In this document: positions 18,636 through 59,620 of the stretch, piece after piece | Layout: every line of letters starts with the position of its first letter | How positions within the stretch are numbered: position 1 is the first letter of the stretch | DNA from: a virus | Lineage: Duplodnaviria > Caudoviricetes | DNA length: 64,000 bases | Direction: 5' to 3' (one strand) | Virus record (IMG/VR): IMGVR_UViG_3300035676_000001 | The notes under the pieces: model-generated | Database searches by the model: none | What the model saw: only the letters and a program-made list of their open reading frames with translations | What the model was told of the DNA's origin: nothing | Program-made: the position numbers and the translations under genes

Positions 18636-18660
18636 AGGTCTGCTCCTTTACTTGGGTAAA

Positions 18661-18708
18661 GTGCGTTCCTTCCCGTGATGGTACTTCCGTCGCATAGCGA
18701 TGAACGTG
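18661..18708 (-). ncRNA. glnA-type (class I) glutamine riboswitch
   Basis: CGUUC-A-UCGC(UAU)GCGA-CGGAAGUA-CC(AUCAC)GG-GAAG-GAACG three-way junction with the conserved E-loop strands. Confidence 0.8.
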
Positions 18709-19993: not shown

Positions 19994-20231
19994 TTCTTTT
20001 TCTCCGGGAAACTACTTTTCTTTTCCTCGACTTAAAGGAAAACTCAAAATAGATGGTTACCTCCCGATTTAGAAAGCAAACCATCTTCTCAAAGATGATA
20101 TGGAAGGGCTGGGTCTGCTTTCTTTTTCCTCCATTAAGTATCAATTCAATACCACGATTAAAGTGGTCTTCCTTTTTATTTAGGTTCTTATCAGACAATT
20201 TGCTTCTCTTTGAGGAATTTGATGGTCTCAA
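19980..20231 (-). CDS. Hypothetical protein (start uncertain)
   Basis: Fills the gap between grx and the membrane protein; basic. Confidence 0.5.
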   Translation of the reverse strand: MRPSNSSKRSKLSDKNLNKKEDHFNRGIELILNGGKRKQTQPFHIIFEKMVCFLNREVTIYFEFSFKSRKRKVVSRRKRNVSN

Positions 20232-20427
20232 CGGAACCTCCTAACTTCTGGTCGTCACATACTACTTGGGGGAAAGTAGAACCTTTACCAAATTCAGAAT
20301 AGAACTCGTCGCGGGTAAAGTCTTCACCCAAAGTATACACCACAAAGTTACTATTTGTCAATTCAAGAACCTGTTTGACTTTATAGCAATAAGGGCAATC
20401 TTCTTTCGAATAGACAGTAAAATTCAT
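20191..20427 (-). CDS. grx: Glutaredoxin
   Basis: CPYC active site; TFPQV cis-Pro; GG motif. Confidence 0.9.
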   Translation of the reverse strand: MNFTVYSKEDCPYCYKVKQVLELTNSNFVVYTLGEDFTRDEFYSEFGKGSTFPQVVCDDQKLGGSVETIKFLKEKQIV

Positions 20428-20460
20428 TGTTTCTTATAATTTTATAATAATTTATAATAG

Positions 20461-20560
20461 AAAAAAGGAGGGTATAAAACCCTCCTCAGTAACCACCAAC
20501 TCACCTCTCCCACCACAGAGAGGGTCTTCATTCCCAAAGTTACAAGGAATAATTGAAGAC
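20461..20560 (-). ncRNA. Candidate free-standing ~100-nt sRNA (two hairpins plus terminator)
   Basis: Begins ~7 nt after TATAAT; GUCUUC/GAAGAC and CCUCUC/GAGAGG stems; terminator AGGAGGG/CCCUCCU + U tract; no SD-supported ORF. Confidence 0.6.
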
Positions 20561-20566
20561 TTGAAT

Positions 20567-20627
20567 ATTATAAGGTATTTTGAATCAGATGTCAAGGGTT
20601 GACAAGGTATGACTTTATAAGTAGACT
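20567..20627. promoter_or_regulatory. Back-to-back sigma70 promoters (-: TTGACA 20590-20595 / TATAAT 20567-20572; +: TTGACA 20599-20604 / TAGACT 20622-20627)
   Basis: Both have 17-nt spacers; the - strand promoter is a perfect consensus. Confidence 0.75.
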
Positions 20628-20664
20628 CGGTTTGTTGCCGTTGAAGACAAGTTATAAGTCTTTA

Positions 20665-45298: not shown

Positions 45299-45327
45299 AT
45301 TATAATGTTTTTAATACCTTCTGTCAA
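45299..45327 (-). promoter_or_regulatory. Perfect sigma70 promoter for the oxygenase + sulfotransferase-like pair
   Basis: TTGACA-17 nt-TATAAT overlapping the 3' end of the upstream gene. Confidence 0.85.
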
Positions 45328-59471: not shown

Positions 59472-59576
59472 TAGTAAGACCATCAGGGAAATGGTGGAGT
59501 TACTATGCTCCCGCCACCCTCAGGCGGGATATGAGAGACGTAATTTATACACCCATAGGTCTCGGTTAACGGGTGT
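59472..59576 (-). ncRNA. PhotoRC-II-like structured psbA leader
   Basis: GAGAC..GUCUC, UCCCGCC/GGCGGGA and ACCAU/AUGGU hairpins in the psbA 5' UTR, matching my recollection of the cyanophage motif. Confidence 0.7.
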
Positions 59577-59620
59577 TGACAATGTTAAGAAATATGAGTA
59601 TTTCGTAACATTTGTTTACC

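Follow-up and report, generated by a model that had tools for sequence, protein, structure and literature searches.

The locus lies in a window of 64 kb (the whole stretch of DNA that was analysed), which originates from a wetland metagenome. On its minus strand, a promoter, a short predicted RNA and a terminator follow one another, flanked on the upstream side by a gene for a C1q-type (C1q-domain) fibre protein and on the downstream side by nrdC, small ORFs and ThyX (Table 1). The initial annotation had described here a sigma70 promoter TTGACA-17-TATAAT with +1 on the first base of a stem, two hairpins, a linker and a terminator. It had also noted GGUGG both in the loop region of the second hairpin and in the linker, and a near-identity of the terminator with that of a riboswitch unit. 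All of these features were found. The placement of the RNA at the border of the replication and tail blocks holds in part: a fibre gene is indeed present on the upstream side, whereas the genes downstream belong to nucleotide metabolism (nrdC/ThyX), for which "replication block" is a loose term.

The promoter scores 12/12 in a promoter scan. Two such perfect promoters are present in the 64-kb window, against 0.13 expected from shuffled sequences, and one of them serves, as an early promoter, a non-coding RNA. The second one (45299-45327, minus strand) drives a protein gene starting at ATG 45276, with no structure between them. The predicted +1 is the 7th base past the -10 box (6 bases between) and coincides with the first base of the P1 stem. 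In the family described below, both hexamers, the 17-nt spacing, the sequence of the spacer and the 6-nt gap to GUCUU are conserved even among loci with unrelated upstream flanks. As expected of an sRNA gene, the RNA has a promoter of its own, placed for its 5´ end.

Table 1. Features of the promoter-RNA-terminator unit and its downstream flank (positions in the window)
Feature	Position	Strand	Description
-35 hexamer TTGACA	20590..20595	-	12/12 in promoter scan; near-invariant among 63 distinct family flanks
17-nt spacer	20573-20589	-	Itself conserved as CCTGAYTCAAAAT
-10 hexamer TATAAT	20567..20572	-	Promoter scan and family flanks
Predicted sRNA, ~100 nt	20461..20560	-	Starts at +1 (G 20560), ends with the U tract (20461)
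P1	20524..20560	-	Outer 6-bp stem from +1, internal loop, inner 4-6-bp stem, conserved apical loop UUGUAWCUUUG
P2 hairpin, 7 bp	20504..20523	-	CCUCUCU-GUGGUG-GGAGAGG; invariant loop GUGGUG 20516-20511
Single-stranded linker	20488..20503	-	5´ half variable; GGUGGU (20497-20492) at least 95% conserved
Intrinsic terminator	20461..20487	-	9-bp G+C-rich stem, 5-nt loop (hairpin 20487-20465), U tract
TTATAAAT box, T4 late-promoter-like	20450..20457	-	Between terminator and nrdC; outside the RNA
nrdC (glutaredoxin, 78 aa)	20191..20427	-	Pfam PF00462, E = 6e-11; downstream context

The 100-nt RNA folds with a minimum free energy of -38.2 kcal/mol (z = -3.67), and none of 200 shuffled sequences was equally stable. 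In the window, GUCUUC pairs with GAAGAC in the outer stem of P1 and UUCC with GGAA in the inner one. Of the two copies of GGUGG, one is part of the P2 loop (20514-20510) and the other belongs to the linker (20497-20493). The terminator is nearly identical to the one at 18529-18508, which stands behind a glutamine-riboswitch unit. The glutamine riboswitch (18660-18708, minus strand, 44 bits) and PhotoRC-II (59495-59587, minus strand, 82 bits) are matched in the window at the gathering level of Rfam. ARAGORN found no tRNA or tmRNA. A covariance model of the RNA (R1) matches the window element with 116 bits (E = 1.7e-24) and, run with filters off, finds no second copy in the window.

Some other signals in the RNA were considered and set aside. 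An SD-like GAGGUGA at the junction of P2 and the linker is not kept where P2 covaries. A Chi-like DNA signal, GTTGGTGG (GNTGGTGG), would leave both the hairpins and the covariation unexplained, and its octamer is variable in the family (GATGGTGG, TGTGGTGG, GTCGGTGG). An alternative fold pairing ACCAC with GUGGU was rejected as well: the window has no ACCAC, which occurs solely in 12-13 of 65 sequences, those of the CCACUUCUCU subgroup. In about half of the family, the segment between GGUGGU and the terminator (columns 78-88 of alignment A4) reads TGGTATAAT, a perfect extended -10; the window has TGGTTACTG in its place.

A BLASTN search of about 50,000 phage records returned only Synechococcus phage S-SRM01, a freshwater isolate of the Kyanoviridae from Singapore and the sole isolate with the RNA. 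The match falls upstream of its glutaredoxin gene, in a gap that carries no annotation, and compensatory changes in P1 and P2 are visible in the pairwise alignment of S-SRM01 and the window. With its host Synechococcus KCZYC6, this phage provides a cultured phage-host pair that carries the RNA. We then define the family by two sets of loci. A strict motif, drawn from the P2 loop together with the P2 3´ arm and linker sequence, was searched in IMG/VR and retrieved at least 120 contigs with 53 distinct RNAs. The pattern itself forced some of the invariance that the P2 3´ arm and linker show among the first 120 loci. Against this bias, 80 loci were gathered solely by similarity of the nrdC protein, a set that corrects for it in part; they were scanned with a covariance model derived from the loci of the motif search. 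The RNA was present in 43 of these 80 loci, in each case ending about 33 nt before nrdC, and they include divergent forms beyond the reach of the motif pattern.

In total, the family comprises well over 150 related contigs of uncultured freshwater phages. Complete genomes of 211-213 kb contain one copy of the RNA each, as does S-SRM01. A relaxed motif searched in bacterial genomes of 185,579 species gave 8 matches, which we regard as chance because all of them are without P1 and the terminator. In the marine relatives P-SSM2, S-SKS1 and SynMITS9220M01, intergenic gaps of the nrdC region do not exceed 66 nt and none of them is matched by the model. So far, the family is confined to S-SRM01-like freshwater cyanomyoviruses. 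Degenerate copies exist, too: at L155:1377-1466 and L163:1378-1468, deletions or mutations affect P2 and the linker, and the latter copy has lost its promoter. Some lineages are therefore ones in which the sRNA gene is decaying.

The initial annotation had named covariation across related phages as a check, and compensatory changes were indeed found in all four helices of the 65 distinct sequences. Cells of the annotated pairs are canonical in 98.5% of cases, compared with 53-74% in controls that shift the 3´ partners by 1-3 columns. Double changes affect 9 pairs (59 cells), with at least one such pair in each of the four helices. For example, the top of outer P1 changes from CG to UA or GC (pair 6/35; CG:54, UG:7, GC:2, UA:2), inner P1 from CG to UA (pair 16/28; CG:58, UA:6) and two pairs of P2 likewise (47/64, CG:57, UA:8; 49/62, CG:48, UA:15). 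In the sublineage of L051 and L169, P1 is almost wholly rebuilt with its pairing kept. The stem of the terminator varies in sequence among relatives yet remains paired, with double changes in 4 of its 7 pairs; the RNA has its own intrinsic terminator, 9-bp stem and U tract, and the stem is maintained through compensatory changes. A scan of mutual information recovers the annotated helices only and gives no tertiary pairs or pseudoknot. The secondary structure is therefore conserved with covariation, as one would expect of an sRNA gene.

Unpaired positions are under constraint as well. Those which are fixed lie in the apical loop of P1 (UGU.ACUU), in the P2 loop (GUGGUG) and in GGUGGU of the linker, the 5´ half of which is free. 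The presumed importance of the GGUGG-type motifs is borne out by these data: they are the best-conserved unpaired positions, also in loci gathered without use of the RNA sequence, and on this comparative basis the two motifs would constitute the functional core of the RNA. Among the nrdC-selected loci, the mean pairwise identity of the RNA core is 84%, about the same as that of the neighbouring nrdC coding sequence as a whole (83% nucleotide identity), and third codon positions of nrdC reach 63%. Because of the compensatory changes in P1 and P2 and the invariant loop bases, we conclude that selection acts at the level of RNA.

The RNA is a previously undescribed family of phage-encoded small RNA. 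The Rfam scan suggested in the initial annotation assigned it to no named family, including Yfr1, 6S, T-box, PhotoRC, wcaG, manA, abiF and the freshwater motifs. No match of the element in Rfam 15 reaches the gathering level, and at E values up to 10 there are six chance-level matches of 11-20 bits to unrelated families with cut-offs of 38-100 bits. The papers on cyanophage ncRNAs that were searched contain no description of this RNA, and the paper on S-SRM01 makes no mention of it (PMC8557907). Described cyanophage RNAs are the CfrI antisense RNA, PhotoRC-II, wcaG, manA, the glnA/glutamine riboswitch and the abiF motif (PMC9964418, PMC12197685). They, too, are non-coding elements in T4-like cyanophages, and two of them (PhotoRC-II and the glutamine riboswitch) occur in the same window. 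However, they are cis-regulatory leaders or an antisense RNA, whereas the present RNA comes with a promoter and a terminator of its own, is independent of any single gene and matches none of them. Our alignment, structure and model provide a new family for RNA databases.

With respect to expression, the 601-nt stretch of the window that we searched had no listed match in RNA libraries, and four aquatic metatranscriptomes share 2 of 8 sampled words. Metatranscriptome contigs hold relatives of the RNA and nrdC and run through the terminator into nrdC; these are assembled contigs, in which RNA ends are not definable and carry-over of DNA is possible. One of the contigs ends exactly at the predicted +1 and passes the terminator, and others extend upstream of +1, which may reflect either read-through RNA or DNA.

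In most loci the RNA is positioned 31-34 nt upstream of nrdC. Accordingly, it might serve the nrdC-ThyX early cluster in cis, as a 5´ leader or attenuator, a reading we consider unlikely. The sigma70 promoter would then be the early promoter of the cluster, and a ligand, protein or RNA at the G/U-rich region would set the formation of the terminator against read-through into nrdC. In line with this, RNA-less relatives often have a promoter directly before nrdC (sigma70 or extended -10 in 19 of 37), and TGTGCTATAAT is found before nrdC in such relatives. Two loci (L183:1313-1500 and L193:628-815) lack the RNA core but retain, immediately before nrdC, a sigma70 promoter with a terminator hairpin; in the former, the -10 box abuts the hairpin, so that transcripts may start inside the terminator arm. 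The metatranscriptome contigs that continue from the RNA into nrdC point weakly in the same direction. Finally, the pyrimidine 5´ arm of P2 and the purine 5´ arm of the terminator could, judging by the sequences, pair with each other to give an antiterminator. This pairing is however without supporting covariation, and any polypurine and polypyrimidine stems would give the same "antiterminator" by composition.

The genomic contexts of the RNA argue against a leader, since a constant downstream gene, which is expected of a riboswitch or attenuator, is missing. The RNA and its terminator are also found before genes for a collagen-like fibre protein, a 410-aa protein and a small unrelated protein, each gene with a sigma70 promoter of its own. 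In a group of 11 contigs (L015/L211), a copy without consensus promoter ends in its terminator, which is directly followed by TTGACT-17-TATAAT and the gene for the collagen-like fibre; a copy type wholly without promoter is itself difficult to reconcile with a leader. A promoter-bearing copy (L037) is followed by a second promoter, TTGACT-17-TATAAT, and the 410-aa gene. Two contigs of about 95 kb (G004 and G005; loci L211, L212, L215 and L216) contain two copies of the sRNA each, 42 kb apart. The first is of the type without consensus promoter that precedes the collagen-like (GAQ-repeat) fibre gene. The other (L215) has the promoter, and after it come TTGACA-17-TATAAT and a small unrelated early gene. 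Further, nrdC seems to be provided for separately: an ATAAAT box precedes it in all 43 RNA-bearing nrdC loci, in comparison with 15 of the 37 RNA-less ones. Similar TAAATA boxes occur after nrdC. The terminators are also strong, with 7-9 G+C-rich base pairs followed by 5-8 U.

Because copies precede unrelated genes that have their own sigma70 promoters, and because some genomes have two copies, we interpret the unit as an autonomous early sRNA gene and not as a leader. Some coupling to nrdC transcription may nevertheless exist, given the promoters before nrdC in 19 of 37 RNA-less relatives, the core-less loci with promoter and terminator, and the presence of TGGTATAAT in about half of the family. 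In two loci (L023 and L027), an ORF of 212 aa, homing-endonuclease-like by its translation only, apparently lies between the sRNA and nrdC, and an ORF of the size of nrdC follows it.

On balance, we favour the explanation that the locus is an autonomous early gene for a structured non-coding RNA of about 100 nt, the founding member of a previously undescribed family. That it is both autonomous and trans-acting seems to us reasonably probable. The following course of events can be envisaged. Host RNA polymerase with a sigma70-type factor would initiate at the G of GUCUUC, as the geometry of the promoter suggests, so the transcript would begin inside a stem. Transcription would then stop at the strong intrinsic terminator. 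With both its ends in helices, the RNA should be stable and abundant. In the last step, it would act in trans through GUGGUG of the P2 loop and GGUGGU of the open linker. The partner might be a C/A-rich RNA with sites of the ACCACC or CACCAC type, as for the G/U-rich seeds of GcvB-type RNAs, or else a protein. The invariance of the two G/U-rich motifs makes it likely that they are the working surface of the RNA. RNAduplex was used to seek targets in the phage itself: 115 start regions of the window were tested for pairing with the loops of P1 and P2 and with the linker, and the best energies were no better than those of shuffled queries. To our knowledge, trans-acting sRNAs of cyanophages are essentially uncharted. 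As a candidate RNA of early host takeover in phages that infect bloom-relevant freshwater picocyanobacteria, the present one is well defined and testable.

A more daring version, for which we would give little credit at present, is that of an early phage decoy. A host factor would be captured during takeover by the UGGUGG-type sites, both invariant, of which one is in a hairpin loop and one in the open linker. As this factor, the most striking candidates would be the single-stranded 3´ ACCA/CCACCA ends of tRNAs, bound by T-box-like UGGN:NCCA pairing, or else a protein that binds RNA or acts in defence. If this were true, it would represent a new way in which cyanophages rewire host translation or blunt immunity.

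Several known RNAs offer parallels to the trans-acting gene we favour. GcvB-type sRNAs of enterobacteria reportedly act in trans through G/U-rich seeds. They share with our RNA short length, own promoter and intrinsic terminator, and exposed, conserved G/U-rich stretches suited to C/A-rich elements of mRNAs. There is no relationship in sequence or in Rfam, however, and our RNA is encoded by phages of cyanobacterial hosts. No role as an sRNA chaperone is known for cyanobacterial Hfq. CsrB/RsmZ protein sponges are similar in the decoy-like repetition of a short motif, here once in a hairpin loop and once in the linker; they differ in that our RNA has only two copies of the motif, and these are GGUGG instead of GGA. 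CsrA is not known from cyanobacteria.

The prophage-borne anti-sRNA AgvB of EHEC is said to mimic a C/A-rich target and thereby trap GcvB. Both are short RNAs carried by phages, and ours could titrate a host RNA as well, but AgvB is the C/A-rich target mimic and the present RNA represents the G/U-rich side. The cyanobacterial sRNA Yfr1 comes from the same host group and has a similar size and layout, that is, hairpin(s), a conserved single-stranded motif and a terminator hairpin. The unpaired motif of Yfr1 is C/A/U-rich (ACUCCUCACAC), whereas that of our RNA is G/U-rich; moreover, our RNA has no match in Rfam and no copy in bacterial genomes by the pattern search. A sponge for Yfr1 was rejected upon inspection: the complementarity to the Yfr1 motif amounts to 5-7 bp at most and is not conserved. 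T-box leaders have a specifier loop and a 14-nt T-box sequence, exceed 180 nt and stand upstream of aminoacyl-tRNA-related genes. We rejected a T-box leader, too, as Rfam gives no T-box match, the core measures only about 75 nt, and the genes next to it are nrdC and those for fibres. The sole resemblance is the tetranucleotide UGGU, which is complementary to ACCA.

The unit could also work at the level of DNA or transcription, as a boundary element. The terminator would close the late fibre operon, the promoter would be a landmark, a polymerase sink or a source of R-loops or primers for replication, and the sequence of the RNA would be secondary. The position at the junction of the fibre and nucleotide-metabolism modules is suggestive of such a role, as are the AT-rich tract after the terminator, the G-rich RNA over a C-rich template and the loci L183 and L193, in which promoter and terminator persist without the RNA core. 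We nevertheless hold this to be very improbable. The compensatory changes in P1 and P2 and the invariant loop bases speak for selection on RNA, and duplicated copies are found in other contexts. A GC-skew inflection is absent at the site, on which ground the idea of a replication origin was rejected as well.

A micropeptide, either the 29-codon ORF from ATG 20531, which is open in the window and has a conserved ATG, or the 10-codon MKTTSLWWER of relatives, is hardly credible: the ATG is conserved because it lies within the 3´ arm of P1, inside a stem and with GGGA just 1-2 nt from it; indels of +1 or +2 in P2 of relatives shift or truncate the frame, which yields more than 30 different peptides of 8-53 residues (in 12 sequences the frame stops at 10 codons); the ORF continues through the terminator; and substitutions are paired, RNA-like rather than codon-like. 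As expected of an sRNA gene, no reading frame is conserved. The view of the initial annotation that the RNA is free-standing, structured and non-coding is therefore upheld by a conserved promoter-RNA-terminator module, compensatory changes, a broken ORF and several genomic contexts. We consider it highly probable that the locus is a genuine non-coding RNA gene under selection.

One last observation concerns the sequence between the stop of the fibre gene and the -35 box. This block of about 70 nt (20596-20664; TCTTCAACGGCAACAAACCGAGTCTAC...) shows little structure (z = -0.8). It contains the inverted repeat TTGTCAA-CCC-TTGACA, which shares the -35 box of the sRNA, and, on the plus strand, a promoter-like TTGACA-17-TAGACT (20599-20627) directed antisense into the fibre gene. 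In many loci of IMG/VR, the block is found again after fibre genes that differ from one another.
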